In this document: piece after piece, positions 8,149 through 64,000 of the stretch
How positions within the stretch are numbered: position 1 is the stretch's first letter
Layout: each line of letters opens with the position of its first letter
NCBI RefSeq assembly: GCF_902652985.1
Contig: NC_047025.1
Span: forward strand, 6,572,001 to 6,636,000
Source of the DNA: Pecten maximus
Lineage: Eukaryota
DNA: 64,000 nucleotides
Direction of reading: 5' to 3'
Notes under the pieces: generated by a model
What the model was told of the DNA's origin: nothing
Seen by the model: only the letters and a program-made list of their open reading frames with translations
Databases searched by the model: none
Translations under genes and position numbers: made by a program

Positions 8149-9599
8149 ATGAACTCCACCTTCGCTTTGGTTTTTGTAGGCCTCTTGGGTAAGTGTAAAA
8201 TTATTTCAAATCATTATTTAATTAATGATTATTATTTTTTAGCTCTGCTGTGCCTAACCCTCAACTTCTACTGAAGGGTGTTAATATCTTGTGTTTACTA
8301 TGTCCTGCTTGAAACATTCTAATTCATTTCACCTGCGTCCATTTAAAACTCAGTATGGAAACAAAACATTTTGGCTCTAATCCATCTTAACGATCCAATT
8401 CTACCGAGAGATGTTAATATTATGTTTTTTCTTTGGACAATTACTACAGCTCGAAACTTTCAAGAAACCAACATAATGCTTAATATAACACTTTGTTGCT
8501 TAATCCTTGCTTAAAGTATATTCCAATCAACCAGTGACAATAGTGACTTCTTGATCCTAAAAAGATTGTCTTAACAAATAAAATCAGAAGTCTACCATGT
8601 AAACCATTTTATACGTCATTGTCTTAAATATATAAAATGAATATATATATATTTTTGTTTTTATGAAATTTACGACGAGATCAGGCATGGCAAACTCAAA
8701 TGCTCAAATGTATGCCATTATGAAGGTACAATTACTAAAATCGCCTAATTTTCACCTGTTTCAAGCGGCTGTTGTGTACAGCGAGATTTGCAAGAGCAAG
8801 ACTGATTGTGCAGACACTACTTGTCAAAGCGGTATGATCGAATGTGTCGCGATCTCTGGTAACCACTTGTGCACGTGCATTCACGGCGATATGGACAAAA
8901 TTAGTAAGTATACGTATAAGTTTGTACTCAGCAAAAGAAATAAAACGGTTAACAAAGAAAAAATACATGTTAAGCGTCATAACATTAATTTAATTTCCAT
9001 TTCTGCTTCGTATAATGTTTAAGCACAAATAAGTCATCAGTTTGAAAAAATACTATCACGAATACATTCAAAGTTTCCTTTCTGTTATTATCATCCTTGA
9101 AATATACACAGCTACAAGTGCTACAACCTCAGATTATACCATAGCTTGTATATATTTCTGTATGTTCTCTTTGATATCTTGAACAATATCAACACAATTG
9201 TTAATGTTTTGTATCTTTTGTAACAGAACATGTCATATATGGATATTCCATGACCACTATTGGCTGTATTATATATACCGTTCATATTGTTAGACTTCTC
9301 CTTATTTTTAAGATATTTTTCATGATCAAAGTGATTTTTTTTAATGTTTATATCCTGTACACTTTGATTATAGCCATTCAGTGTAGGGGAATGCTTGCTG
9401 ATCTTGAAATGTTTCTATTATTTCTGCAGATTGTACTGCCAGGGCTGATTGTCAGATGGACTCTGTTTCCATGGACTGTGATCAAAGTCTAAGACACTGT
9501 TACGACGAGACCTGTCGCTGTGAGGGCCATGGACACAACCATGGAATGTTTACCCATCCACCTCATCCTACCCATCCTCCCCATGGCGGAGCTCATTAG
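8149..9599 (+). CDS. Secreted 12-Cys peptide with His/Pro tail, Cvsi/I84-like, copy 2 (115 aa)
   Basis: Exons 8149-8188, 8766-8903, 9430-9599 (348 nt, open frame). Tail GHGHNHGMFTHPPHPTHPPHGGAH. The exon 2 acceptor is AAG instead of TAG. Confidence 0.85.
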
Positions 9600-16795: not shown

Positions 16796-18402
16796 CTAAT
16801 GAGCTCCGCCATGGGGAGGATGGGTAGGATGAGGTGGATGGGTAAACATTCCATGGTTGTGTCCATGGCCCTCACAGCGACAGGTCTCGTCGTAACAGTG
16901 TCTTAGACTGTTATCACAGTCCATGGAAACAGAGTCCATCTGACAATCAGCTCTGGCAGTACAATCTGCAATAATAATGGAAACATTTCAAGATCAGCAA
17001 GCATTCCCCTACACTGAATGGCTATAATCAAAGTGTACAGGATATAAACATTTAAAAAAAAATCATTTGGTCATGAAAATTGCCTTAATGATTAGGAGAA
17101 GTACAGCAATATTAACGGTACTTATTATACAGCCAATCGTGGTCATGGAATATCGATATATGACATGTTATGTCACAAAAGATACAAAACATTAATAATT
17201 TTGTTGATATCTGTCAAAGTATCAAAAAGAACATATAGAAATATTTATAAGCTATCGCATAATCTGAGGCTGCAACACTTGTGCTGCGTATATTCCAAGG
17301 ATGATAATTACAGAAAGGAAACTCTTAATGTATTCGTGATAGTCATTTTTTGCACCTTTTGATTATTTAAACGTGATACGAATATGAAGCAGAAATTCGG
17401 AATTAAATGAATGTTTAAAAGTTTACATATATCTGTTTGTTAGCTTTTTTGACATTAACATAAAAAGGAGACTTACTGAGATACATACAAAGTATACTTA
17501 CTAATTTTGTCCATATCGCCGTGAATGCACGTGCACAAGTGGTTACCAGAGATCGCGACACATTCGATCATACCGCTTTGACAAGTAGTGTCTGCACAAT
17601 CAGTCTTGCTCTTGCAAATCTCGCCGTACACAACAGCCGCTAGAAACAGGTGAAAATAGTAATTAGTAATGCCGTCATAATGACAAACAATAACCAATTC
17701 CTCTACTTTTGGCCCTAAGAGTTTAAGATATGTTAATAGTAATGCGATTTCAAGTCAAATGTTAAGGACAATTCCTTACAATGAATCATTTGAGTTTGCC
17801 ATGCTGGATCTCGTCGCAAATCTTGGTAAAACAAAACAAAAAATAGTTCAAATATTTAAGACAATGACGAGTACAATAATGTACATGCTAGAAGTCTAAC
17901 TATATATGTTAAGACACCGATTTTATGTTGAAGAAGTCGAATGAATAACGTAATTCTTCCGTAGTCTTGGTTGATTGGCAATATCTATACTTTGGGCAAC
18001 GATTAAGCACCAAAGTGATATATTAAACATTATGTCGGTTTCCCGCTGTAGGAATTGCCCAATAGACACACGAGGTATGAACATCTCACAGTAGAAGTTG
18101 ATCGTTAGATGGATTAAAACCAAAATGTTTTGTTTCAATACTGAGTTTTAAATGAACGGCATGTGAAATGAATTAGAATGTGTCAAGCTGGTTATGGTAA
18201 TCGTCGGTGACTAAAGTCTACCAGCTGTGTCTACCAACTGCAATCCCAGAAAGGTGTATCCAAGATATCAGCACTCTTCAGTAGAAGTTGAGAGTTAGGT
18301 ACAGTAAAGCGAAAAATAATAATAATTAATTAAATGATAATTGGAAACAATTTTACACTTACCCAAGAGGCCTACAAAAACTAAAGCGAAGGTGGAGTTC
18401 AT
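16796..18402 (-). CDS. Secreted 12-Cys peptide with His/Pro tail, Cvsi/I84-like, copy 3 (115 aa, inverted)
   Basis: Exons 18402-18363, 17639-17502, 16965-16796; GT-AG; frame intact. Confidence 0.85.
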
Positions 18403-29500: not shown

Positions 29501-32500
29501 GATTACAGATCTCAATCCTATTCACAGTTGAATGTACAAAGTTAACATGAAATGAAGTTTTATAAGTCGGTTGAAAATCTTGGGTATTATATTTTTCTAT
29601 AACCTGAAAATTTCTATGAATATATCTAGTATGTAAAATATCCAATTTTTAAAGCAGTCATGATTTACTCTCAGAGATGGTTTTTGATAAATTACAATTG
29701 AAAGTGGAAAATGCATGAAAGGAATGTTATACAGTAGAAAGTCTCTGGCAAATAGAAAAACTAGAAAATGTCTGTAAGACACAAATGATTAGCTAGTAAC
29801 ATTGCATTTGCATCAGGATGGGAGGGACATGGATAACACTATATGCCCCCCCCCCCCCCCAACCATTTCATGGCGGGGGCATAACAAGATTAGCCATTGA
29901 TTCTTTTCAATACCACACACAGGGAATCCCAACACTAAACAGCATATAGAACATCATACTTTTTTTCAAATTGAATTGCCAAAGTCTGCATATATAGTAA
30001 GATAATTGTTATGTCACAAACTTTTATGAAAGTGTTTTGATATGAAAGCTCATGACTTTCCACTGATTGCCATCATTAATCTAACACTGTTCTAAGACTT
30101 ACTCGGGGAATTTCCCTTTAACTCTTGCTAGATATTCCTTCTGAACCCTCCTTTGAAGAATATCATCCTCCATCTCACGAGTTTTTTCTGCAGACTTGGC
30201 CATGATAAGGAGTCCTGAAGTAAGCCGGTCCAGACGGTATATTGCTGCAGACATAGCAAATAACTGTAATCTTTTCATATAATTCAATTATTAACGATTT
30301 TTAAAATGGATCTAAATAATGAATTGGCTAAAGACATAAAGAAATCTTTTCAAAAATTATTATTTTACAAAACTTTATAATAGTTAAACATTCTCATCCT
30401 TGCCTTTCTACATCCTCCATGTATTATGACATGATACATACCAGTATTTGTTTTCATTTGAATTTTAATTAATAGAAAAAAAAATGTCACAAATTAAAAG
30501 ATAAGATTAAATGCAAATCATAAATATTTCTGTTGAACATATTTAAACAAGTTTTTATAAGATCATGAATATTCATTTGTATTAACAAAATCAATGTTCA
30601 ACTTCTTTGAATTTAGATTTAAAATTTATCTTCAATTTGTGAAAGATAAAAATTCTTGGAAAACATGTCCACATTTTTGCCAATATATTCAAGGGTATAT
30701 ATAATGTACATAATTACATGTATTTACTTTGGTTGTAAACAGGAACAAAAGGCCCAATTGAACTGTATTGCTCACCTGTTCTGTAGCTATGATGATTTGT
30801 ATTAACATTAAATTTAAAGTTACTTTAAATTGTGTCATTGATGCAGATCCTTTAATCAAAATTTTGTTTTTTAATGAACAAATTTGATATCCCTTCATCT
30901 CAGTATACTACAAACCCAATACCAGGAACATGGGTCTCTTCATGGTTATTGAGAAATATTTTTTTTACACATTTTAAACATGTGACTTTAAAAGGTCAAG
31001 ATCATACTATATGATTAACCTTTTAGCTCATAAACCCAGCATGTTACGGGCCCAATATTTTAACCCTTGTGCCTCTTCGTTTTTTTTAATTTGGAAAAAA
31101 AAAAAAAAAAAAAATTGCAAAAAAATGAAAAAAAGAAAAAAAGCATTGAAAATTTCCAATACTTTATCAAGCATTGTTCAAAATATTGATATGGAGTTTC
31201 TGTAAGACCTACTTCGCAGATTAGTGTATCCCAGATCTTTGCCGAGGATGAAGGGGATGGAGTTGAAGCGGTATCTTCCACAGGGGTGGACGGGGATAGA
31301 GGACGGTTTGTTTATCACAATAACATTTTCATCATCTGTCACAATCTCCAAAGGAGTCCCGATCACTGGGTTCTCATGTCTGTCAAAATAATCAAGATAA
31401 CGATGTACAAAATTGTCTTCATACAAATACCAATACATGTACTAAATTGTTTCAATTTTTTTGTTGAAGTTTATTTCTATTACCTGTTTATTATTTACCT
31501 GTGTGTTTCTGGTTACTTATATACCAGGTAATCATGTCTACCTGAATGTGTATTTGAATGAATTGATAGGCTGTATATTTTGGTTACCTTTGTATTTCAA
31601 TTACCCTTGTGTTTCGATTACCTGCGTATTTTGATTACCTGTATATTTTGATTACCTGTGTATTATTTTGATTACCTGTATATTTTGATTACCTGGGTAT
31701 TTTGACTACCTGTATATTTTGATTATCTGTATATTTTGATTACCTGTGTATTTTGATAACCTGTATATTATTTTGATTACCTGTATATTTTGATTACCTG
31801 TGTATTTTGATTACCTGTATAATTAATTTGATTACCTGTGTATTTTGATTACCTGCATGATTTGATTACCTGTATAATTTGAATACCTGTGTATTTTGAT
31901 TACCTGTGTATTTTGATTACTGTGTATTTTGATTACCTGTATAATTTGATTACCTGTGTATTTTGATTACCTGTATGATTTGATTACCTGACAGTTTATT
32001 TTGATTACCTGTGTATTTCAATTACCTGTATATTTTGCAATTGATTACCTGTATATTTTGATTACCTGTATAATTTGATTACCTGTGTATTTTGATTACC
32101 TGTATGATTTAATTACCTGACAGTGTATTTCAATTACCTGTGTATTTTGATTACCTGTATATTTTGATTACCTGTGTATTTTGATTACCTGTATGATTTA
32201 ATTACCTGACAGTGTATTTTGATTACCTGTGTATTCGATGTGATAAAAAATCATTATCCTTCAATATTTTGTCTGTAGTGACCACTTCACCATTTAATGA
32301 AATGTCTCCATCTTGAAGAATTTCTTCCTAGAAAATCATAAAATACATTTTCCAATTAGACAAACGATCAAGACTAGTATCAAATAAAATGGTACATAAT
32401 CTGTTACAACATTAATGTAAACACTCAATACAAGGAAAAAATGGCACCTCAAATCATTGCCATGAAAAACAAACAATGCAAACAATAACCAAAAAACCGA

Positions 32501-36860: not shown

Positions 36861-37296
36861 ACATGCAGAGCTGTCCTCTCACAAACATTCAAGCAGGAAG
36901 GTCGGGAAATGGTATTTAAATGATTTAAGGTAGGCTCAAAGTTTGTTTTACATGGAATTCTTTCAAATGCGTTAATTGATATGAATGCTTCGATTCTTAG
37001 TCAGTCCAATTGTATGCAACTTTGACAGATTTTGCCGTGCACATCTCTACAGTAGACATGATTTGCATTGATCATAGGTCAAACAATACTATTCAGTTTA
37101 GCAGTTTAAAATGATTCATTGTGTCTCAAACATGTGTTGTATATGTACATATATAGCGTATTAAGTCCTCACAGCAGGTATTTTCTTTTAAAGGTTCGTC
37201 GATCGGTTCACATCTCCTGCAGTTGAAGATGACAAGATATATGTAGTACTGTACATTATAAGCTCTAATTAGACGAAGACTACGTTCTGTAACAGG

Positions 37297-40200
37297 ATGA
37301 AGCTGTCCTTTAGTTTGGTTGTATCTGCCCTTTTTCTTGGCTACATTGGTCACTCTATGTGGGTTATCTATGGGATTTTCTTCCCCACTCCATGTGCTAA
37401 AGGCAAGAGATGTATTTATCCATATATTGGACAGAAACCAACGCCAGAACTAGAGGTTTGTTTTCATAATTTTCTAGGACATGTACGTGTTTATTTTGTT
37501 AATCAAATTACTTTATTTTGTTACATTTTTGTAAAATTTTCATTATTTGATTAAAATATATAAAACTATTTAAATCTTGATTACATACAATGTAGATCTG
37601 TAATTAATATACAATTGTATAGCTTTATTGGCAGCTTATTAAGGTTGATTGTTATCTCCTTAAGTAATTTTTGCTCAGCTTAACTTCAACAAGGGATGTA
37701 TTACTCAAAACTACTTAAACGTGCAATATGCACAAATACAGTTGATGTATATGATAACAATCTTTTTCAGATGCAAATCTTTACCTCTACAAAGCAGAAA
37801 GGTGTCAGTGAAAGTGATCTGAAGCTGATCTGGAGGAATGACAGTTTGGATATTCATCAGACATATGTAAAGTAAGAGTCAACAATGTAAAGTAAGAGCC
37901 AACAATGTAAAGTAAGAGTCAACAATGTAAAGTAAGAGTCAACATGTAAAGTAGGGTGAACAATGTAAAGTAGGGTGAACAATGTAAAGTAGGGTGAACA
38001 ATGTAAAGTAAGAGTCAACAATGTAAAGTAAGAGTCAACAATGTAAAGTAAGAGTCAATAATGTAAAGTAAGAGTCAACAATGTAAAGTAAGAGTCAATA
38101 ATACATGTAAAGTAAGAGTCAACATTGTAAAGTAAAGTAAGAGTCAACAATGTAAAGTAAGAGTCAATAATGTAAAGTAAGAGCCAACAATGTAAAGTCA
38201 GAGTCAACAATGTAAAGTAGGGTGAACAATGTAAAGTAAGAGTCAATAATACATGTAAAGTAAGAGTCAACATTGTAAAGTAAAGTAAGAGTCATCAATG
38301 TAAAGTAAGAGTCAACAATGAGTTTTGTCTCTTTTATTTGAAATACTGTGAAATTACTCTGTATACTGCATTGGCATTTCAAATAATTTGCGGCCAATAT
38401 AACTCAACTGGCTAGAGCACTGACCACATAATTTAACCTCTGGTGTCTGGTGAGTTCCGAGGTACATGATTCAACGCTTCCTATCCGTGTTGGTTCATGT
38501 TTCTCGAGAAGCTGAGAAATGGGCCTGTCTGGTGCTGTTATGGTTATGTCCTCGGGCAAGACATTTTACCCTAATTGATCTGAATGGCATGTAACATTAA
38601 CAGGCATGTAACATTAACAGGCATACCTTTGTTGTTCAGTGAGGTAGTCACCAACTACTACAAGGAGACCCCACCTCAAAATGATCCTGTCTGTCATGGG
38701 GAAATAAACCCCACAAACAAACAAACATATAGCATAAGTTTGTTATGTAATATGTGTTAGCTACCATTAAGCAACTTGTATGAAATAGATGGGTATACAT
38801 GAAATGTTAAAAGAATCTGAAAATACAAAATATTATTAAGATTACTTTCAACTATGTACAGAGACAAGCTAGAATTTGAGATCATTCTTTTACAGAGATG
38901 TAAATGTTTCCATGCCGCTAAAGACAAGAAGGAATGGAACACTGTACATCCATGTGTTCGTCCATCCAAAGGGACATGATCCATTCGACAGCACCTATAG
39001 CGTACACACCTTGGTAACCATGACAACATACTCTCTGCCGCAAGCAGAGTTCTTCAGTCTGCTTGGGGACAGAAATGAGGTACAGTTAAAACATGTCAAT
39101 GCTAATTACTAGCTGTTTCCCCAAAGTAGAGAAAAGCATATTGAAGGTCAGGGCTTTTTCTAAGGTTTTTTTAATAGACCCCATTCTCAATTGAAATAAT
39201 TTCATATTAAATCAAACTTCCAAAATTTTACTCCCAAAAAAATCTGTACCGATTCACCAACTCTCTTCCCAAAATGAGACAAAAAAAGCCCCATACTAAA
39301 CTAGTGAGAAAAAGCCCTGATGGTTATTCTAAAAAGTAAAAATAGGTTAATTAAGATGATATGTGATCTTCAAATATGTGAGGTTATCATATATTCATTA
39401 CAATTAGATTTGATTGTAACTGTCACTTTTCGTTTATTTTGTTAAGAGTGAGACTCTGGACAGAAACATCCCAATCAGCCACTGGAGGAAGAAATTGTTT
39501 GTGACATTGGTGACCGACCCCTTGGCTATAGACATGCATGCAATTCCAGCCGATTTGTATAAGTTCATCAGGTAACACTCTGAAGAAATGCTATACATAA
39601 TATTTAAAATCATTGGCATTGGTTAAACTCTCGGTCAATTTTGAATTTTAGTACATATTCATAAAAAAAAATATGTAAACTAATCCTATACATAATGGTA
39701 GTACTAAATAAGTAACTCAATCTCGCAATTATATATCGGGCTGGTCTCGGCCACAATTGGAAGCGAAATATCAAAGTCAGATGTTTGTTTTACTTTAATT
39801 CAAAGTACTTAATAGGTTTAATTTTTTTTTTTTTTTTTTATTTAACGTCCTATTAACAGCCAGGGTCATTTAAGGATGTGCCAGGTTTTGGAAGTGGAGG
39901 AAAGCCGGAGTATCCGGTAAAAAACCACCGGCCTACAGTCAGTACCTGGCAACTGCCCCACGTAGGTTTCAAACTCGCAACCCAGTGGTGGAGGGCTAGT
40001 GATAAAGTGTCGGTACACCTTAACCACTCGGCCACCAAGGCCCCGTACTTAATAGGTGGGAAAATCAGCTTCTTTGTTTATGTTTTCAGTACAATTAGTT
40101 AAGAATGTGTTATGGTTTCTGTTTCAGTCCTGCCCCAAATGGACGCTACTTGCCAATCGTATACATAGACCATATCAGTTTCAGAGTGAGGGATCTCCTG

Positions 40201-49794: not shown

Positions 49795-50047
49795 TTTTGT
49801 GTTTTGGCAATTGTCCTCTGAATGTCTATTGTGGTAATATTTTTGTTTGTGTTTTGGTAATTGTCTTTGGAATGTCTATTGTGGTGTTATTTTTTGTGTG
49901 TGTTTTTTGGTAATTTTCTTTGGAATGTCTATTGTGGGGATGTATTTTTTGTGTTTTGGTAATTGTCTTCGGAATGTCTATTGTGGTGATATTTTTTTTT
50001 TTTTTTTGTGTGTTTTGGTAATTGTCTTCGGAATGTCTAATGTGGTA
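49795..50047. repeat. Minisatellite, ~48-55 bp unit (TTTGTGTTTTGGTAATTGTCTTCGGAATGTCTATTGTGG), ~5 copies
   Basis: Directly visible. Confidence 0.8.
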
Positions 50048-51194
50048 TAATATATGGAAATTTTTAAGATTCTGTCACTCAAGAACAACCTAAAGTGAAG
50101 ATATATAGATCATTGGTGTTGGTTACTGAGAAAGACCAAGCATGGTTGGTGGAGGGACTAAAATGATTATTGTTAATATTTATATAATAATCATGGTAAG
50201 CAATTAATTATATATAGATGGGGTTCGCAAATACTTTCATCTATTTTCTTGGATATTATCAGCAATTATTAACAGTGTACCATTTTATAAAGTTTATTCA
50301 TTTCAACCCAAAGAAACTTGAGTGGACTCGGCCATTCATTCATCATCGGAAGTCCAATATGTTCCGTAGGGGTGAAAGGGTAAGGTATTTTGATATCAGG
50401 TTTGATGCTGATTGACTTGGTGTTTTTCTGACGGTGTAAAGTTCTTTGTATCTTTTAAAGTCGCAGAAACTATTTTGTTACCTTTTCAGAAGTGGCAATG
50501 TTGGTGTAAACATTTCATTTTATAGTTTTATATCTAGATCCTTTGCCCAAACAATATGTTAGTGAAACTTAATCAAATTTGATATGTTGATAGTTAGTTC
50601 ACATTAAGAACCTATCAACACGTTTGCTGAGTACTATCCAGATGTAATGGTCCAGGGAAGTTTCGTGTCTAGCCCAGTTTCTCAGGAAGGTACCTGTGGT
50701 TTTCCACCAACTCTTAAGATATTGTGGTTTGGACATCTCAACCCACTACACTATAGATTCCTTTTATGTGTGTTTTGGGGTTAAAAACCTTGATAGTAAT
50801 GCAACGCTTCAATATGTAAACGTGTATTGATTATACATAAGGTGCTTACTAATTGCTTAAATAAGTTCAAATTACTCGGAAGTTTTTTCAGTAGTTTTTG
50901 TGAAAATGTGCATAAATCTGAAGTAAAATATGGTGTTTGTTTAAAATCTTGTCAAACATTCATGTAAGACTCTAAAGTTAATGATCAACTACCTTTTTAG
51001 TAATTCAAAAGCTTTTCATAGTGTATCTTAATATTTTCCTTTATATAGACTGAGGTGTTTGTTGAAAGGACACATCTTCACTAGTGCCACTTCATTTGTG
51101 ACGTGTATTGTTTTAATCAATTGGTAATATAAATTTGCCAACGGCTTCTGTTGCCTACAAAAAGAAATGAAACATACAAATGTATAAAATTATT

Positions 51195-51662
51195 TGATCA
51201 CTTAATTAATACCTTGTATGATATTATTTGATCATTTAATACCTTGTTTGATATTATTTGATCATTTAATACCTTGTATGATGATATCATTTGATCATTT
51301 AATACCTGGTATGATATCATTTGATCATTGAATACCATGTATAATGTCTTTTGATAATGATTTGATACCTTGTATGATATTATTTGATTATGAATTTTTA
51401 CCTTGCATGATAACATTTGATCATTTAATACCTGGTATGATATCATTTGATCATTTAATACCTTGTATGATGATATCATTTGATCATTGAATACCATGTA
51501 CAGTATAATGTCTTTTGATAATGATTTAATACCTTGTCTGATATCATTTGATTATGATTTTTTACCTTGCATGATAACATTTGATCATTTAATACCTTGT
51601 ATGATAACATTTGATCATTTAATACCTGGTATGATATCATTTGATCATTTAATACCTTGTAT
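51195..51662. repeat. Minisatellite, ~30 bp unit (GATCATTTAATACCTTGTATGATATCATTT)
   Basis: Directly visible; it generates the repetitive pseudo-ORFs 51198-51497 and 51487-51771. Confidence 0.85.
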
Positions 51663-52335
51663 CATGAAATGTTCTTGCACGTGTCAAGACTACAAAATGT
51701 TTATGTATTGTTTGTCTTCGGTAGAAATTACAATTCGTGACGTTTTTGCGCTGAAATCAATCTTTATCTAGAGTGAAATCCAGATGAAATGTGTTTTGTA
51801 TGTTAACTGTTTACATATACTGTTGACTTGTTTATTTACTGATGTGCATGCTTGTTTACAAACCAATTGTTCTGTACCCAAATGCCAATGACCGTGGGTT
51901 GAAAACCGAAAGTTCTATTGAAACATAGTACATATTCGAAGTATTCTTCAATCTAGATTATTGTTAGATTCTAATAAAACTGGTCACATTTTTATTATGA
52001 GTATGATGTTATTACTATTTTTTTAAGAATTAAGTGGGTGTGGTTTGTGTTTCCCTGCTTAAGTCATATGCTGGTTTCGTGTTGTTTTATTGTATTCCTT
52101 CAAGTATTTTGAACTTCTTTATTTAGACATATATTAAAACACCAATACTTGAAATTACAATTTGTCTGTGTAAAGTAATTCTTAATGCACACATATTTGT
52201 GTAGTTTGTACATTGTAAAACAGTGCATTAGATGAAATTTTATGTGAAGCGGGACCGTAATAGGCTTCACACGTTTGTCTTAATAACACTAAAAAGAACT
52301 CGTTTTCAGCAAGAAGAAACCATAATATGTTTATT

Positions 52336-55300
52336 TTATTTTTTCCCGCCACAAGAAACTCTAGCATGTATGCCACTGGCTTTACATTGACATCCGTTGT
52401 AATATTTGTTTCTGTACTTGACTGTGAAACCTTTTTCATCGATTTGTCGGCATCGCCCATTCACATCCTTACATACTGAAAATAGAAAAGCGCTATATGC
52501 ATCTAATTGGGGATAAGTAATATGAATATAATTCGAATGACTCAATGCGCATGACATAACTTGATACATGTATCATCGACCTTGTAAATATACTGGTAAT
52601 ATGAAAATGGAATTAAGTCCTGCTTGAAACAACCATTCTTATTGGCTAAAATGTGTTATGCATGCACAATAACTAAAAATGAGACTGATAGTTGAAACGT
52701 TGTCTTTTATTGGCTTGGAGAATTGCAATTTTCCGTTGAAAAAAAATGTTGTCATATCAAATAATTACATTTAGTTCATTTCAAGAATTCATAATGACAA
52801 CAGCAAGGGCATATTGATAGAAAGAAATTGTTGAGGAATAAAATGTGGTTTGTTTTATAGTTCAAGTTACGACTTCGTGTAATCAATTATAAGAATAGTG
52901 TTATATCTGCATGAAGAAAATCCCAAAATTGACGCATTCGTTCAATGTATGTCTTTTGTAAATAGATATGGACAACCTGTCTCCTGATAATCTGTCATTG
53001 CACCAAAATTGATGTAAACTTTTACTCATTTTACAAAAATTGCGAACTAAGTTAAATTATCTTTTAAATATTGAATATAGGATGTCTTATTGTTAGATAT
53101 AATGGAGAACCTACGTAGTAGGGCAGGTGACCCCATACCTATTCATATCGGGTCAGGGAATCGAAACCCTGTCGCCTGTGTAAAATGTTATTGTGTTACC
53201 ATTGTGTCCCCGACCCCTCATCTATGTGATCTGATACATTAGTATAAGTATATAAACTTACAATATCGAGCGACACTTGGTTTATAGCCGCCCCTTTCAC
53301 AGGTGACACACACAAGCATGGCACATCCATTTCTGAAGACATGTTCCCATTCCTCGCCAGGCTTCCTACATTCACCTGTACGTGGGTCCTTGCAACCTGG
53401 GAAAACATGAGAAAATGTTAGCTGACAAATACTATCACTGTAATTGATCTAGGAGATACAAAAAGAAATCAAAATGGAATCATTAGTAATATATATATAG
53501 AACATGTCATAACATATATATGCTGAATAAAACAGCTGTTTAATCATTGTGGGGACTTGTCCCCCCAAAAAAAAGAAAAAAAGAGGGCAAAACACTATTA
53601 TATGACCCAACGTTTTCTTGCCATCATTTTTTTTTGCGTTTTTTATCGGGTGCGAAACTTTCATAATTAATTTCAAATTTCCATGAGGATTCAGACTTAA
53701 CAGGTATGGAATATGTGTTGTTTACACTTTAATACAAGGTGAGATGACATCTATTGTTTAAATATGGCTACACAATCGGTAAATTAAGACTCGATGGTCT
53801 TACTTCCAACTCTTAATCCCACGTATTTCGGTAAAACAAGTTTTTTCTCTCTCAAAAACTGATTTACTACTGTCTATTGGCTCATCATAAGTTATTGGAA
53901 TGAATTCGGCACTAAAGCTGCTGAACTATGTACGTTTTCAATGTACGTATTCTTTTTGTTTGATTATTTCTAATTCATTGCCTGTGTTACCTGCTGGTTT
54001 TGTCCGTATAGACCTACTATAACGGCCATTTGACGTAGAAACCAGACATGTCCTAGTTAGACAGTTTCCTGCCGACCATTCCTCGTTTGCCTTCCTACAT
54101 TTTCCCTGGTACATGCATCCTTTAAATGGAAAACCACAATATTAACACATTTAATTAAAATGAATACATATTGATTGTCCGGCTAGCCATTCAGTTCATT
54201 TTCCTATCACGTACATGTATGGCACTAGCTTTGATGTTCAGAGTCGAAGTCAAGGTATTGACTGCATGACATTATTTTAAACTCATGTGAAGGTAGTTTT
54301 GCTTTCCATTTTGTAACCAACAAAATAAAATAAAAATCTCCAGAATCAACCAGGTTTATGGCAGTAAGTGGAGGTTCTGGAAATAAATCGTTCAATCATT
54401 GACTGTAGGGAGAAAATATTATAATGTTCGCTTTGTCACCATTCAATTTTTTCATTAAGATAACATTTAATGAAAGAGTATGCAAGAGCTGTTATGGATT
54501 TCAAGTACAAATAATTTGCTTACATAGGGCTGGGGGCTTGAGAACGAGAATAAGATGGAGGTGCTAAGTATTTAGAGTAAAAACAAGTATCTACTATATA
54601 GACATCGAGGCAGACTGCTACTTAGGAAAACGTAAATTAACTGACAAAATAATGGACGTGCTAAGATAACCTATGTATAAGGCGATAACCAAATGTCTTC
54701 TACAATGTGAGTTTTTTTCTCTTCGTGTCTCGTTGGTTACATTAGCACAACATTAGGACAGAATAATGTGGGGTTCATGATGAACAATGAACGTGTCCCC
54801 TGGATTTTACTTTAGCAAATCTTCATATGTATGTATTTACTCCAAAGTAAGTAAACGCCTTTCACCCCAATGTGCACATGAAATATAAATGCTGACATGG
54901 TTTTAATTTGTTTGATTGTTTGTTTGGCAACAATTGATGACCATTGCTTTTGCACTTACCCATTGAAGATGCCACGATCCGTGGAGTGGTTTTTCCGCTA
55001 GGCAATTTGTAAGAAATGCATTTTGACGTCATGCATCTCGAATCATCGTTCCATTCCGATTCAATAGACCTGCACACTCCATCGTTACTTTTGCATTCTA
55101 TCATGAAAACGATAGCAAAAGTACAATGTTAGGCATGGCAATAGCAAATAGCGATATCTGCGCTTTACCTGCAGTATTAATCATGTATCATTATATACTA
55201 GAACTACAACTAGAATTATATGTGGAATCTTGCTGTCTGTAGCAATATTGAGCAAGAAACGACGGAAGAAGTTGATAGTGTTATCCGCATGTTTTTCCAG

Positions 55301-58300
55301 AAGAAAATCAGTTCTTAGTGTTAGAATTCCAAATATAATGTCAAACTCTGATCGATAACACAATCCATCACCAAACTTCCATAAAATGTTAAGTAAATGA
55401 AAATATCAATAAAATATTTGGCAACATAGGAAGAAAAAAAAGAGAAATAGAGAAACTACCAATACGGGTACGAATTGGTAAATACATAATATGCTTTTTT
55501 TCTCACATTTTGAAACCAATTAGAAATCTCCAACTTTAATGTAGCTGTTCAAACTAGTTAAAATTATTACTCTTAAGAACTATTCTGAATTTGAAATGCA
55601 TCAGACGTACCAGGTAACAACAGATAATGGGATCTGATCTTGACGACAGAGCTCCCAATAAAGTAGAAATGCGGATAATCCAATTAAAGTTGCTTTATCA
55701 ATGATATTGGAAAGTTGCTCATCGAGAGTTCAGGATGACAGGTTTAGTTTGATACCACAGGCAATTGGATAGACTGGCCCATTGTCTCTAGAATATTTTG
55801 ATTATAAGTAAAATTCAGCTTCATGATTTTGGTCTCTAGGGTATGTCTGCTTCCAAGTTTCAAAGTAGGGAGGGGCAGATAATCTAGTATTATAATTTAG
55901 CAGAACAATTCTTAATATAAACTGGCTGGTAGCAAGTCTAGCAATTGGAGTTAAGTCATACTTTGTGACCTAAACTTCAGTAAAGGTGTACGGGTAGGGT
56001 TGTTGTCGTCACAAGTGTATGTGGTACAGCTTTCTTCGATCGATTCCCCCACGGCTATACAATTTCCTTTGAAGTCCCTACATGCTGAAAGACAAAAACA
56101 ACGCAACAGTTTGAGTTGACAATAAACGCAACAGAATATATGTAATATTTCTTCGTATGGCTTACCCTGTCGGAACACATGGTCTTATTCTCTTTGTATT
56201 TTGTAAATATATATCGGACTTCTACCCTGTTGTATTTTGTCCTTGTTTTATTGATTTTGATTTAGACTAACGGTTTTCTTATTATATCAGTATTCTGTGT
56301 TGTTTTCTAATGCTCTTTAATGGCGTTTAAATCATCGCAATAGATCATATTGGTATCCATTGTCTTTATTTAATTTCATGGCTCAGTAAACGAAAACATC
56401 AACTTTAGGTGACCTGTTTTAATTCATACCGACGAACTTGAAGTAAAGAATACAATTCTTACACATGAAAGCGAATCCCTAACTTCAAATCGCGGAAAGG
56501 AGGTAAAAGGACTGTCGACATATTAACGAAACCATAACCACATCCCCCCCCCCCCCCTCCTTATAATACAATCAGTGCGTCTCTTTGTCGAAAACGACGA
56601 ATCGATACTACATTGTACGTTCTCAGTGTTAGAATTAAGGTTGTGACAATGTCGGGATAGAGGTTGTGACAATGTAAGAATTGCGATTGTGACAATGTAA
56701 GAACTAAGGTTGTGACAATGTAAGAACTAAGGTTGTGACAATGTTAGAACTGAGGTTGTGACAATGTAAGAATCGAGGTTGTGACATTGTAAGGATCGAG
56801 GTTGTGACAATGTAAGAACTAAGGTTGTGACAATGTCGGAATAGAGGTTGTGACAATGTAAGAATTGCGATTGTGACAATGTAAGAACTAAGGTTGTGAC
56901 AATGTAAGAACTAAGGTTGTGACAATGTTAGAACTGAGGTTGTGACAATGTAAGAATCGAGGTTGTGACAATGTTAGAACTTAGGTTGTGACAATGTTAG
57001 AACTTAGATTGTGACAATGTAAGAACTAAGGTTGTGACGATGTAAGAACTGAGGTTGTGACAATGTAAGAATAAAGGTTGTGACAATGTAAGAACTAAAG
57101 TTGTGACAATGTTAGAACTGAAGTTGTGACACAAAATGTATATCTGGATATGTATATATCATTGAAACAAATTAATGAATAAGTAGATTTTTTTAGGGTT
57201 TTGATTGCATTCATAAATTGATAGACTTACCACGTTTGTATGGATCCATTCGGGCACTATATCCGTTGTCAGGAGTCCTCTTTACACTACATACATACTC
57301 AGAACATGACATATTGTGAAAACTTCCTTCATCAACACAGCTTCCACGGAACATACAACCTGCATAAAAGAACAGATATTTACAACTGTCATGTTGTATT
57401 GAAACTGGGAATCGACACTTCTCACGACTGCTTATATTCGATTTCGAACCTAACAATAATTTTATACCATATAGTAGTTTTATAGAGTTTTCATGTTATC
57501 ACTTACATATTCAACAGTCATGTCATATTTATTGGTATGGTAAACTTCACTTTGGGAAATGTTAGAAAAAACAATTGTAAATATTACAAATTACATTATG
57601 TATAAACCTGTGACGTTCATATCTACTATATAGTAATGATATACATATGTACTTTCTTTCTCTCAAGTAATAGGTATGTTGTGATTAAGGCAATTAATAT
57701 GTTTTTTATTCGTACCCATTTTTTGAATTTTCTTAGAAAACGTGTAGCTTGAACCTCGCTGTTCTTGTTCGCAGTAATATGTAGCACAATGTCGTCTGTC
57801 CTGGTAGGTGCCTCCCACATTCAAACAAGTGCCATCAGACATTGTACAAGCTAGTTACAACAAAGACGAAGAATGCCACATTTTTATTATATTATAAATA
57901 TATATTTCAAGTCTTTACAACAGTACAGTGTCTACCCAGGTTATCCTCTATTCGTACAAGCATGATATGCACGCATCCCCTTTGTCGTTCATTCAGAAAT
58001 CCAATGGACATGTTTCACCATTTTGTCCAGTATTAGGTATTATAAGAATCAGGTCAGAAACGCATCCATGGATAATTATAATTATTAGCTCATGATATTC
58101 ATAATTAACATAACTTACCAGGAGTATATACCCTTCTTATATAAAAATCTATAAACATCAAATGGTTCCTGAACAAAAAGGGTTCAAGTTTTTATTTTGT
58201 GAGGTACCTTATTTGGGTAAAAGCATGCTTGAGTAGTTATTACAATTGCAATAGGTTGAATTATTCCTATTTCAGACCTTGATCTTATAATTACCGATCT

Positions 58301-61300
58301 TTTAGATGCTCCAAAATCAAATTGCAAAATATAAGACTGACTTGTTCAAAATGTGTTTTGTTGATAATAAAGAAATATTCGAACTCTATATTACTATGAA
58401 CAGCTCTAGTTTTGGCATTCAGTAATTTTTTGATACATTCCAATGTACCAGTTTTCAGCATTATATGTTCAAAAAGGTCTAACTAACGAATATAATAGTC
58501 TACATTTATCACATACTGGAAAGTTGGCATCAACGAGGTTACGGAGCCCGACATTTTCATTTTGGATCCTACAGAAACAATCGTATTATCAAAATCGCTA
58601 CGAATGTTCTAACACTATTTGCAATCAATTTCCAAGGCTATATCAACCAATTTACCAATTTTAAGCTAAATAGGTGACTGCTTTTGCATTAGACAATGAT
58701 GTTCGTTTCCAGTGATTTGATTTTGTTTTCCTGCTCTGGTATGATTATATGTTAATATACATGTAACATACCTCCTGTATCGAGGCCCATGTGACAGGCG
58801 TATCCATTAGTACCCGACATACATCTCCGTAAAAAGCAGCCATCTTGAACTGTCTGGTCTATTTTATAGCATTTGTTCTTAAAACGACACACTAAAACAA
58901 TAGAGATTTAAAAAAATATTACAACATATTATTATTCTTTTATCATTTTAGAATAACTTTGAACAAATGTCTAATATGTAAATCGATCATCGGCCGCCTA
59001 AGTGAAATAGCAAATATGTTACCATTGTGTCAGCCGACCAACCAAATCGATTTTTCTATGAAAAAGTGATAGTGTAAAGATGCGAATATCATTGCACATA
59101 TGCATTCTTAATTGTCTACCTGAATTACTGTAAATCAACATGCTTTTTAATAGCGGGTATCTCATATCAGAGGTCGTAACATTATCTAACTTACTAGAAA
59201 CTAAATTCTTTATAAACAATCTGATTGATGTCCCATTCTTTTCCATAACACACTGCAGTATGTCACAGCCATGTCCCTTGAAGGCAGTGAAAGCTTCTTT
59301 GCATTCCCCATAGTAATTGCAAGCTATGAATATAAAACGTTATTAAATCAGACGAGATTTAGATCATTATTGCAAAACTGAAATTCATCTGCGTATGTTT
59401 AGCAAATCAAACTATCCTGCTAAGAACGAAGATTTTAATCAAAAAATGTATTTCGTGTCTTTTTGGAGGTACAGAAGCATATATAATATTTATGAATTAT
59501 GTGTATACAAAGTCTCGTATTGAATAAAAATTGTTGAAATCAAACATTAATCATTGATATTAGAATTGCATTTTATCGAAAAGTATTTGACAAGAATGGA
59601 TTACCTCCCTTTACAAACTCATTGCCACATCTAGTAGGCTGTCTGCGACACCTGTACGTGATGCAGTTCGTAGTGTAGGTTGTTCCTAGTGGAATACATC
59701 CTCCTTTTCCATCACTGCAGCCTGATACACAAAACAGAGAAATTATATACAGGAGCGATCTATTCCACATTTTTGTAAAAAAAAAATCTCAACCAATCAG
59801 AAAGCCGCATTCTGCGTACAAAAATGGAGAATTAATTATTGAATTGATTAACTACGTTTTCCGTTTTTTACAGATTCCATCTGATGGTATTATCTTATTA
59901 TTTGGTAAACTTGCTCTCTTTTCATAAAAAATGCACGTGACGTAAGTATGGTATTGTTAATGACGCACATATATCACAGGGATAAGATTTCGCGGTTGTC
60001 CAGACAAAACTGGGTTTCAGGTATTTAATTCAGGCCATTGCCGCCCTATGTATTCTGCAGTAAACACTCTTGTGTTTATAATGAATATTCGATGGGTATT
60101 GATGCGCGAAAATAAATATCCCGCGAATATTCAGTATAAAAGTGTTAATGTTTATATATGTGTTGCCTTGCTTGATTTTCTTGATGCGTTATTTTATTAT
60201 TTAATTCATAAATTTGTCGTTTTTTTGCGTTTTGTTAAATTGAAATTCGACACTAAAAAAACAAAACAGAAAAAAGCCCAAAAACTTCCAAAACAAAATA
60301 AACACGAATAAGTTAATATACCAATTAAATAACGAGGACACCCAGCTAAGGAATGGCAACCTTTCATATTGGCCTTAATGGAAATCAGACAATATGTCAA
60401 CATTTTTGCATTGCTCAAGACAACAAATGAATCATAGTTTTGTCATATTGTTTGAAAAAGAAAGGCTTACCTGATTTCTTCAAATAAAAATATGGCATGT
60501 ACGTTGTAGGATGCAATCGGCATTCAGTGATGTAACAACCGCGTGTCTTTGCGTAACCGATATCTCGACATATGCTTCCATCCTGGCAACCTGTTCAATT
60601 TCGAATAAAGACATGTGTTTTGTTTAATGAATAATTACTTCGAAGTCATTTCAAATACAACGCATACATCAAAATAAATAATAGAAAAAAAAATCACTGT
60701 GCTCTCCTATTTGAGATCTGGGATTTAGATAAGCATACCTCAATTTTCTTTTGAAAACGATTATATTAATTGTACCATAAAAACTGAAAACAGTTTAAAC
60801 TTTAACCTTCTATTAGAAATAGCTGGATTTTAAAAAATACAATGCCTCCCATGTCATTCGTTTTTTCACTTACACTTAATTTTCTCGTTTCAAACCAAAA
60901 TTTGATAAAAAAATAGCAATGACTGAATCAACATTCCACATCTTAAAATCAAATATTTATTTTGCATATAGTAACGGGAAACATGATTCCTACAATGCAA
61001 TTTTTGTTTTAAATTTAGGGTGAGTTTTGATGTCTTATGCCCCAAGAAGCATTCTTTATATATTGCATATTACAAAGCTGGCTTCTCTATTAATTTCCTC
61101 AAAGATACCATTAGTACAACAATGTAATATGGCTTAGTTTAATTACCTCTTTTGACTGATGTCACCACAAAGATTGTTTGTCCTCTTTCGTCTATATCCC
61201 TCTGACATATCTTCTCATCACATGTCTCCCCCTGAGTATCTATCCAGGTTTCGTTTTCCTTCCTACAAATGTCTCCGACACTGCATCCTACGTTTTTGAG

Positions 61301-63213
61301 ACAATGTAAGTATGTGCACATGTATCATCATAACAGTAACGGTAGCTATCAGTTAACAACATTAATTTCTCCTTTTAGTCTATACTGTACACGTGCATGT
61401 TTTAGCGGTGATTCTAGATTTGATTTAGCTAATTGTAGGCTCTGTACATCATTTACATTGTGGTAGAGCAAATTTGTGGCGGTGCCTAAACGTTTTTAAT
61501 GAGGATTTGCGCCAAAATAAGTACGCTGTCAGTATTATAAAAATATCCAGAATTCTATCATGACATTATACTACTATTGCTTATATTGCACCATTCATAA
61601 AATAAAACTATAATTGAATTCTCCATTTCTCTGAAGAAAACTTGATAACCTATCGTTATGATTATAAAACATTGTCGTGCTTTTGAACACTTTTTGACAG
61701 CTCCTTTACTTCATTTGTACAAAATCGAACAAATAAGGTAAGAAACCTATACACATCAAATGTGTTTAGGAAATCTAAAATCAGGTGTCAGTAAGTTTGA
61801 CGTAGTTTCCCTTTAAACATCTACATCTCTACGCTATCAACTTACCGCCTTCAAAAACCTCTAGGTATTCGATACTCTGTTCCTCCTTGCATTCGTATGT
61901 CACACAACCTGTTGTTAATTTCTCCCCAGCCTTGATAAAGTTTCCATCGTTATCTTGGCAACCTGAAAAAAATATCATACCCTTAATGGAGCCCGCAACT
62001 CTTATTGCAATATCATTAACTATAAGAATTCCTCGTGCATATTATTGAGGCTTGTTTAATCGCTTGGTCATATTTTTTCAAAGCTTAGCCAAATGTTGAG
62101 AGTATGATTTAATTATCTCATAGAAAATTACAACCTTTACAAAAAAAAAATATCAACGGGAACTAGAAGTGTCATTCAAGGTAAAAGAAGATGCAAAAGG
62201 TATTTTTTCTTTTCTATAATATCAACAATTGAATTTGAGTTATGACCTAAACACTTGTTTTCTGGTAGTTAGTACTTTGATTAGGGAAAAGTGTTTCTCG
62301 CGGATTAAAGGCAATATTTACCACAGTCCAACGGCGTGTAGAAGCAGAAATACAACATTGTATTGTTATCACAGTCTTTGATCTCGGGTATAGCGCCCTT
62401 CTTCTTTAAATGGACGCCGACATTCTCGTCATCAAACACAAAGTATTCCTTTTGGTATGTCATCCCTGAGAGGAAATAGAACAAGCAACATGCTCACTGA
62501 TTTACATCGAGTCATAGTATCCTGCATGTCGGCTAACCCGTTCGCGGCTTCAAATTTTTAGCGAAAAACCGACTTAAAACAGATAAGAATTGCGTTGAAT
62601 ATGAGCTATCACGATGCTTGCCCTTTCAAATCGTGTACAAAAACTACGACTGCTTAAACAATGGGCTAATGCACCTTGAACTTAGTCATCTGCATCAATC
62701 ATCAATCAAACTTTGTAGACACATGTACAACTGTATATGTTATATCAAACTATTGTGTCTTAGCCTTAGCTAGAGGTAAACAAATTAGTTGACGTTGCTA
62801 ACACATCAGATATAAGTCTGTTAAACACTATATCTAAAAATTAAGAAGAAAGAAATTATGTTGTGTGTTTATATTACTCTAACTAGGACTGAACACAAGT
62901 ACTGGTACTAAGCTAAAATGATGTTTAACTTAACGACAAGGTATAGGTATACATTTTCTTTAGATATTACACAATGCCAACACCAGCCTCTAACCTCTGA
63001 CGGTCTGACAGTCATCAGCGTTAGAAGCCATATACAAAGCGAAAGGCATTTCCTTTGGTAGTATAATAGGCACATCTATATCGCCGTCGGCACGACAACA
63101 AAAGTAAAACCCAGTGTTCTTCTGGTATTCGCCATCCGGAACGGTTCCTTTGACGTAATTGATCGATTCATATCCATTCAAATCATCCATCTCAATGTAT
63201 CCTTGTTTAAAAC
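52336..63213 (-). CDS. Apextrin C-terminal (ApeC) domain protein with 13 tandem Cys-rich modules (5' end outside window; ~678 aa visible)
   Basis: Exons 63213-62995 and 62465-62322 encode ApeC-like sequence (VPDGEYQKNTGFYFCCRADG..PIILPKEMPFAL..CQTVRGM..EYFVFDDEN..G.IP..NTMLYFCFY). Module exons 61962-61846, 61287-61147, 60590-60471, 59721-59605, 59323-59195, 58891-58772, 57850-57716, 57359-57231, 56084-55962, 55097-54960, 54119-53991, 53396-53262, 52475-52336(stop) all have GT-AG phase-1 junctions and join in frame. Confidence 0.8.
56637..57130. repeat. Minisatellite, 23 bp unit (GTTGTGACAATGTAAGAACTAAG), ~21 copies
   Basis: Directly visible; intronic in the ApeC gene. Confidence 0.9.
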
Positions 63214-64000
63214 CTGCAATGTTGGATGAAAACGTGCGTTCAGGAAAATCATTAAGAATTAGTCATTGCATAAGCATGGCAAAACTGTAGGAGTGAATCT
63301 TCGTCCTTAAGGTCCCAACATATCAAATACAAGTCACGATGTGTTTCTCAAATATATTAACATAATGCTAGTAAGAGCATCAATGCGCTTACCTTACTTA
63401 CCTATACATATGGCAACTGTGTTGACTACTTACATAGTATTATACTAATCATTTTATTTCGCACCTACGTTTTAGCTATACGTATTTGTGTGATTTATTG
63501 CTCTCAGCAAAGCGAATGAAGATTTATTGCATTCGTTCATGCTTCTAGAAGTGAAATCCACAATATCCTTATACAGTCTAAATTCGAAAATAGTACTGCC
63601 GCCGTGGGTATGGAATGGTAACAGAAACATTATGTTAATAAAGAAAATATCTTTTGTTAAAATTCAAGAAGGGTTGTTATTTTTATATATATTCATATCA
63701 GTGCACGATTGAAAGATATGCAAATTGTTCAACCAATTGAAAAAGTACTGTTATCTATGAATATAAAGGCATCAGGAATGGGTATGACGTTGTTTTTCCA
63801 TAAATATATAGTTTAAAAAGGATAGTTAAACTATCGTAAAAATGAGTTATGTAACTAAATCATGTTCTTTCATTGTTCGGCTTACTGTGAAAACTGAAAA
63901 AAGATAAAGAAATAAAAGCAAATTGTCATTGCCATATTCCGCACTAAGATATTTTAATTAATAGTGTAAGAAAATTTTTTTTTTCAAATTATGTGATTAC

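Follow-up and report, generated by a model that had tools for sequence, protein, structure and literature searches.

A 64,000-nucleotide stretch of the Pecten maximus genome (NCBI RefSeq assembly GCF_902652985.1, contig NC_047025.1, positions 6,572,001 to 6,636,000 of the forward strand), here called the window, carries on its minus strand the larger part of a gene that combines an ApeC domain with a chain of cysteine-rich modules. A sequence-only reading had described two ApeC-like exons followed by 13 one-exon modules. Fifteen exons lie inside the window at the positions given by that reading, and all introns are GT-AG and in phase 1. The 13 module exons stood as proposed. ApeC, however, is encoded by three exons rather than two, and the gene extends beyond the window: a search with the ApeC family located the domain's first half immediately outside, and the upstream DNA supplies ApeC exon 1, four further modules and a signal-peptide exon. 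A further 87-nucleotide untranslated piece of the transcript was not located upstream. The exons are given in order of transcription, with modules numbered by their position relative to ApeC.

G000:C11 6642074-6642188: signal-peptide exon, outside the window
G000:C11 6639733-6639864: module -4, run-opening, without second Cys, outside the window
G000:C11 6637998-6638111: module -3, outside the window
G000:C11 6637569-6637685: module -2, outside the window
G000:C11 6637013-6637129: module -1, outside the window
G000:C11 6636095-6636382: ApeC exon 1, just outside the window
63214..64000, minus strand: window part of an 881-nucleotide intron, leading to the six upstream exons
62995..63213, minus strand: ApeC exon 2, Pfam positions 93-163
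62322..62465, minus strand: ApeC exon 3, Pfam positions 167-208; its last residue is the conserved C404
61846..61962, minus strand: module 1, run-opening, three Cys, without second Cys
61147..61287, minus strand: module 2
60471..60590, minus strand: module 3
59605..59721, minus strand: module 4, with additional Cys 562
59195..59323, minus strand: module 5
58772..58891, minus strand: module 6, with additional Cys 645
57716..57850, minus strand: module 7
57231..57359, minus strand: module 8
55962..56084, minus strand: module 9
54960..55097, minus strand: module 10
53991..54119, minus strand: module 11
53262..53396, minus strand: module 12, with additional Cys 903, in scallops only
52336..52475, minus strand: module 13, the cap (C-x6-C-x19-C-x-C-x10-C), with the stop codon

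The 12 internal module exons measure 117-141 nucleotides, each a multiple of three with phase-1 borders, as the proposal of symmetric one-exon modules had it. The module 13 exon has 140 nucleotides and ends with the stop codon at 52336; the transcript continues past it to at least 52253. The cysteine pattern first suggested for the units needs two corrections: module 1 has three cysteines rather than four, and module 13 has a different, cap pattern. A search for acceptor, cysteine pattern and donor found 12 such exons in positions 52001-64000 and none in 1-52000; as a control for chance, the region was imitated 200 times by a first-order Markov model, with at most one such exon per copy (mean 0.015).

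Splice evidence came from the contigs of 6 runs out of 24, among which X11 is recorded as RNA and X4 is RNA by guess. RNA contigs joined all 14 in-window introns (14/14 in X4, 13/14 in X11, fewer in X16 and X3). The joint from ApeC to module 1 (62322 to 61962) was present in both X11 and X4, with a short side of 116 letters, and a single 1736-nucleotide contig from X11 spanned ApeC exon 3 to module 12. Because these joints and this contig bridge ApeC and the modules, a pair of separate genes is ruled out, and the proposed splicing of the two parts into one gene is borne out. The upstream exons were joined in 3 of 4 runs, giving RNA-contig support to 20/20 introns over the whole gene. No exon-skipping joint was among those listed in the six runs, in which contigs drop rare forms and X8 has no coverage of the gene.

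The full product has 961 amino acids, 84 cysteines, 7 N-glycosylation sequons and a mass of 109 kDa. It is identical to P0005 (XP_033755203.1), an ‘uncharacterized protein’ of Pecten maximus. Its domains run from the signal peptide through four modules and ApeC to 13 modules, so that 187 residues precede ApeC and 557 residues of modules follow it. ApeC (PF16977) scores 175.3 bits against a cut-off of 26.5 (residues 192-399, profile 1-208) and is the only Pfam match on the full protein. The sequence-only reading had placed ApeC N-terminal to the module stalk. Since four modules are encoded upstream of it, ApeC is instead internal, inserted after the 4th of 17 modules; the upstream exons and the ApeC-only Pfam match rule out both an N-terminal ApeC and a MACPF domain ahead of it. 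Eight ApeC cysteines are kept in full-length orthologues (C206, 249, 273, 281, 322, 323, 352 and 397), equated with the family set by count and Pfam span, without alignment to amphioxus ACP1.

Other expectations held. Over 19-residue stretches the protein is hydrophobic at its N-terminus alone (1.55, against 0.93 for the best stretch elsewhere), in keeping with the predicted lack of a transmembrane segment, and with a signal-peptide exon upstream of the window the 961-residue protein is likely secreted. The array had been called old and divergent, and so it appears: median identity among the 17 modules is 22.5% (136 pairs, maximum 37%), and the domain order is common to bivalves and gastropods. 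Net charge is negative through module 2 and mostly positive beyond.

The cysteines of the modules appear to follow a rule that extends across module borders. Each module has 3-5 cysteines, C-x4-C occurs in 16 of 17 modules, and C-x-C...C is confined to the cap module. To count the second cysteine (C2) across the family, 61 of 82 proteins were used, with 9 off-family or fragmentary and 12 near-duplicate proteins dropped and 40 modules of unclear position set aside. C2 was present in 349/351 internal modules vs 10/53 run-opening modules, and several of those ten look like cases of a missed first module. In a hidden Markov model (HMM) alignment covering 59 of 83 proteins, C3 of one module and C2 of the next were both present in all 334 adjacent pairs; in six proteins the module that comes first after ApeC had no C2. 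Natural variants follow the same lines. In module -3 of two proteins, P0015 and P0019, Val stands in for both C1 and C4, and P0048 has a C3-less module ahead of one lacking C2. The cap module closes 40 of the 61 proteins. Retention of C2 internally and its frequent absence from run-openers make a good case that disulfides tie each module to the next. We infer that C1 pairs with C4 within a module and C3 with C2 of the following module, and that a run is opened by a C2-less module and closed by the cap. Under this rule, gain or loss of an internal exon leaves no free cysteine. Conserved C30, C34, C167 and C404 stay unpaired under it and could serve to bond the N-terminal arm with ApeC. P0005 also has extra cysteines at 140 and 562, both present in scallops, oyster and abalone and both absent in Mya and Mactra; a long-range or intermolecular bond between them is possible, with the alignment gapped at 562.

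The modules are predicted to adopt the fold of fibronectin type I (FnI) and of von Willebrand factor type C (VWC) subdomain 1. AlphaFold with 31 alignment rows gave a predicted local distance difference test (pLDDT) score of 75.5 and a predicted template modelling (pTM) score of 0.37; with 4 rows pLDDT was only 28.6. In the 31-row model the modules are all-beta, each a hairpin plus a three-stranded sheet, and the last strand often continues into the next module. Among 48,161 chains, the seven best structure matches were all FnI or VWC, with moderate Z of 5.1-6.3 and coverage mostly of modules 10-13. Factor XII FnI matched at Z 6.3 (root-mean-square deviation (rmsd) 1.7 over 42 residues), VWF C4 at Z 5.3 (rmsd 1.2 over 40), and fibronectin 8-9FnI matched a module tandem at Z 6.0 (rmsd 3.8 over 82) and, in a second comparison, Z 6.7 (rmsd 3.4 over 82). 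The suggestion of FN1/VWC-like beta modules is thus upheld by the model. The whole-model comparison gave no structural match specific to ApeC, which was not modelled alone.

Named sequence families approach the modules without reaching them. Over the 17 module exons no Pfam family attained its cut-off, the weak matches including Fn1_2, VWC and SVWC. Fn1_2 (PF23003) scored 14.0 bits on module 1 and 14.7 bits on module 4 against a cut-off of 27 bits, with no match on the whole protein and none above cut-off in a genome search. The best VWC (PF00093) module score was 14.3 bits against 27.6, and the modules do not have the ten-cysteine, two-subdomain set of a VWC domain (PMC10326224). Pfam fn1 matched neither the module exons nor the whole protein. 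A sequence search of the PDB found no match to the protein and only chance matches to the module profile, and Atlas gave no usable match for the module region of P0002. Two of 67 scanned proteins did exceed the Fn1_2 cut-off (the relatives P0035 at 28.9 and P0065 at 27.4), and an Atlas feature search with the relative P0018 returned MIG-18-like Fn1_2 as nearest, at a score of 0.85, under 0.9 and so a lead only. By these comparisons the nearest named family is the nematode MIG-18-like Fn1_2. The notion of an unnamed domain therefore survives in part: no Pfam cut-off is reached by the modules, but their predicted fold belongs to a known class and some relatives match Fn1_2.

Scallop orthologues are 78-82% identical, with Ylistrum lacking module -2 and Mizuhopecten split across two records; word-based protein searches returned scallop proteins only. 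A profile of the 17 modules reached 67 proteins at E ≤0.001 among 1.84 billion representatives, a few of them off-family or low-complexity. Names were looked up for 20 of 66 new matches, and the 18 named comprised 17 molluscs and one nemertean. ApeC together with modules was found in Saccostrea, Mya, Mactra, Sinanodonta, Haliotis and Patella at 33-43% identity to the scallop protein. Four modules precede ApeC and 11-14 follow it in oyster, abalone, limpet and Mactra (the limpet count takes in one false module and leaves out one). Modules -4 to -1 each selected their positional counterpart (4/4 in oyster, abalone and Mactra). For modules 1-4 the figures were 4/4 in oyster, 3/4 in abalone and 1/4 in Mactra, and modules 5-12 did so for 4/8 in oyster, the majority only narrowly, and almost nowhere else. 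Strong matching near ApeC and weak matching distally suggest that the core around ApeC predates the bivalve-gastropod split and that the distal arm turns over.

Modules also occur without ApeC, as long arrays alone (P0010, P0014) and within numerous proteins some 270 amino acids long. In P0007, P0009 and P0033 a VWA domain is followed by module arrays, with 32 and 27 stretches (Pinctada, Ylistrum) and 7 (Mytilus). LOC117337852 (P0081; G000:C11:9093902-9104707) encodes 398 amino acids with nine modules, about one per exon, and no further domain was seen in it.

A further relative may be the main protein of the scallop byssus thread. Sbp5-2 of Chlamys farreri (CF30077.9) has been described as 14 repeats of two cysteines; it accounts for 37 wt% of the thread in Chlamys and assembles into cross-beta fibres (PMC9117251). 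It is foot-enriched about 2,500-fold and has no domain annotation whatever, ApeC included (PMC5700196). Its repeat scheme was questioned in a later review (PMC12817120). For the present comparison Sbp5-2 was represented only by short motifs, namely cloning primers (repeats 8-12), a primer for RACE (amplification of cDNA ends) and the C-terminus. The cloning primers translate to alternating module halves. One primer-derived pattern matched at G000:C11:33194503 and none in the control; a second matched C17, where no module exon was found, and was rejected. At G000:C11:33.19-33.20 Mb, a candidate signal-peptide exon precedes seven module exons, with the borders of the third not fixed. Of these seven, the last four carry the primer motifs in the same order: three exons hold two motifs apiece, and the final exon has the C-terminal one. 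Agreement was best at 7/8 and 7/9 residues and otherwise about half to 5/6, partly judged by eye.

The module profile of the scallop ApeC gene matched four exons of this gene and seven of an upstream paralogue. Alignment of the profile with exons of the gene and its neighbour by hhalign gave 92.6% and E 4.4e-7. In shuffles with cysteines held fixed, 10 of 11 exons were reached by at most 2 of 100, and one exon was no better than chance. Short motifs and a DNA-only gene model thus point to this gene as the likely Sbp5-2 orthologue. The 14 published two-cysteine repeats would then likely map onto seven modules, and the module of the ApeC protein is likely the unit that builds Sbp5-2. The published rTRM7 construct, if it starts at repeat 8, begins mid-module. 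The likely orthologue and its upstream paralogue lie together at G000:C11:33193930-33214260 (L007-L009, minus strand). Of the former, the annotated record P0083 covers only 231 amino acids; the latter has 14 or more module exons, including six near-identical ones that arose by recent duplication.

What might a protein of this kind do? The role that we consider most likely, ahead of lectin and regulator readings and with about half of our confidence behind it, is a secreted scaffold rod of matrix or mucus carrying a glycan-binding ApeC. FnI-like modules would be stapled into a rod by module-to-next disulfides, and the rod would work in mollusc extracellular matrix or mucus, holding the glycan-binding domain in place. 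The glycan that ApeC binds would be either a self glycan or peptidoglycan. Around this domain the conserved modules -4 to +4 would make up a fixed core; the distal modules, variable and basic, could bind or co-assemble with matrix partners. Presence of the modules in the likely Sbp5-2 orthologue and after VWA domains suggests a matrix link, as does, by analogy, MIG-18, a basement-membrane protein (PMC4856095). ApeC itself has matrix associations: sea-urchin apextrin was found in the apical matrix (PMC9585378), and the domain has been linked to a limpet mucus protein (PMC7333891) and to oyster attachment (PMC10225672).

Several points weigh against this scaffold. Z values below 8 could, by the tool's own note, mean just a common beta arrangement, and most of what Foldseek matched to the whole model was large beta-rich chains, non-specific at a query TM score of ≤0.11 and not used. 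Given a pTM of 0.37, the overall shape, whether straight rod, hairpin or compact, is not fixed by the model. A cruder first counting rule for C2 gave a weaker contrast (345/355 vs 47/93), and related proteins in the cysteine counts are not independent cases. Residues 192-399 contain no exact DxED, where the ApeC family has three relatively conserved DXED motifs; BgACP1 and bfACP5 have all three mutated, yet are counted as members (PMC9585378, PMC8361754). In these same sources, the ApeC domains assayed for binding come from short-form immune lectins.

Those assays feed the strongest competitor, a soluble humoral pattern-recognition protein in which ApeC binds peptidoglycan and the modules contribute no more than spacing or an oligomerising arm for agglutination. 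Among molluscs and amphioxus, short-form ApeC proteins are known to bind microbes and peptidoglycan, including some with mutated DXED (PMC9585378, PMC8361754), and the eight kept ApeC cysteines, signal peptide and lack of a membrane segment are as such a lectin would have them. We nonetheless regard this as rather unlikely. The fixed-core orthologue persists from scallop to abalone and is closely conserved among scallops, unlike the expanded short-form group, and modules of this type occur in matrix-type proteins. Distinctly less probable is a secreted regulator that binds proteins, not glycans (a growth factor, collagen or ADAMTS-type protease), in development or in remodelling of shell or mantle matrix. 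In its favour are the structural matches to FnI and VWC: VWC subdomain 1 of CV-2 binds BMP2 (PMC10326224), MIG-18, whose family is the nearest to P0018 by features, is proposed to act likewise on MIG-17, and for the most part modules -4 to +4 can be matched position by position across classes, as expected of binding surfaces. Yet fold alone shows no function, and the Atlas score for P0018, under 0.9, is a lead only, with no usable match for the module region of P0002 itself. We give very little credence to a structural protein confined to the byssus that partners Sbp5-2 directly. It would account for the module type common to the likely Sbp5-2 orthologue, but abalone and limpet, which make no byssus, have orthologues of the ApeC protein. 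None of the 16 listed Chlamys byssal proteins has an ApeC annotation (PMC5700196), a point that counts against the matrix scaffold as well.

The scaffold reading can be extended, speculatively, to a more general scheme that we hold to be unlikely as a whole. Daisy-chained FnI-like modules would be an unrecognised lophotrochozoan fibre or rod unit, with Sbp5-2 made of seven modules and with ApeC or VWA heads plugged in; the ApeC protein would then arm matrix fibres with a microbe- or glycan-binding domain.

Other features of the window and its surroundings were recorded in passing. Positions 700-23200 contain duplicated 1-2 kb blocks, part of them inverted, that are 78-87% identical. A short stretch with six cysteines that looks like coding sequence occurs there in three or more copies (1603-1974, 8636-9022 and 17473-17754) and has no meaningful Pfam match. 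The intron between modules 8 and 9 holds a 23-bp tandem repeat of 22 copies (56627-57131), and further tandem arrays lie at 51181-51662 and 49796-50046. Intronic high-copy repeat pieces at L005 7246-7590 and window 59779-59822 draw many unrelated contigs. By eye, and with no Pfam match, a fragment at 31178-31441 (minus strand) resembles an RluA-type pseudouridine synthase and one at 37273-37554 (plus strand) a CLPTM1-like membrane protein. The upstream neighbour (G000:C11:6657990-6671000, L003-L004, minus strand) has exons whose motifs resemble those of a TRP-type channel.

The protein itself is already in print. XP_033755203.1 and its Mizuhopecten orthologue are in the accession table and tree of 130 mollusc ApeC proteins, where the scallop entry, by the text layout of the tree PDF, adjoins the Group 7 label beside oyster and gastropod entries (PMC9585378). 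The accessible text of that paper gives no architecture or modules for this group; Fig. 1B there, and Fig. 2b of PMC9117251, may show architectures. A search of literature outside subscription papers found no module analysis, no paper on the ApeC/module gene and no FnI reading of Sbp5-2. The present analysis offers a predicted fold, and a disulfide rule that can be put to the test, for a module overlooked by current Pfam models in dozens of secreted proteins, most of them from molluscs. It also offers a new reading of the repeat unit in Sbp5-2, a protein already used for spinning extensible fibres. Conserved over bivalves and gastropods, the ApeC protein is a place to test the role of the domain outside short immune lectins.

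Like apextrin and the short-form ApeC proteins, the scallop protein has a signal peptide and one ApeC with eight conserved cysteines, and it differs from both in having no exact DxED motif. Apextrin combines signal peptide, MACPF and ApeC, whereas the scallop protein has no MACPF; the short forms have a single C-terminal ApeC, whereas here the domain is internal, between 4 and 13 modules. Fn1_2, whose named clusters are mostly nematode, has a 27-bit cut-off that the scallop protein stays below. The predicted hairpin and three-stranded sheet resemble FnI and VWC subdomain 1, at rmsd 1.2-1.7 over about 40 residues, but VWC subdomain 2 and the ten-cysteine set are missing. An FnI module has four cysteines, including a C-x-C, and two internal disulfides. 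As in FnI, one scallop module is one phase-1 exon and a tandem pair aligns with 8-9FnI, but internal modules have C-x4-C in place of the FnI C-x-C...C pair and, unlike either FnI or VWC, carry a second cysteine likely bonded to the previous module.

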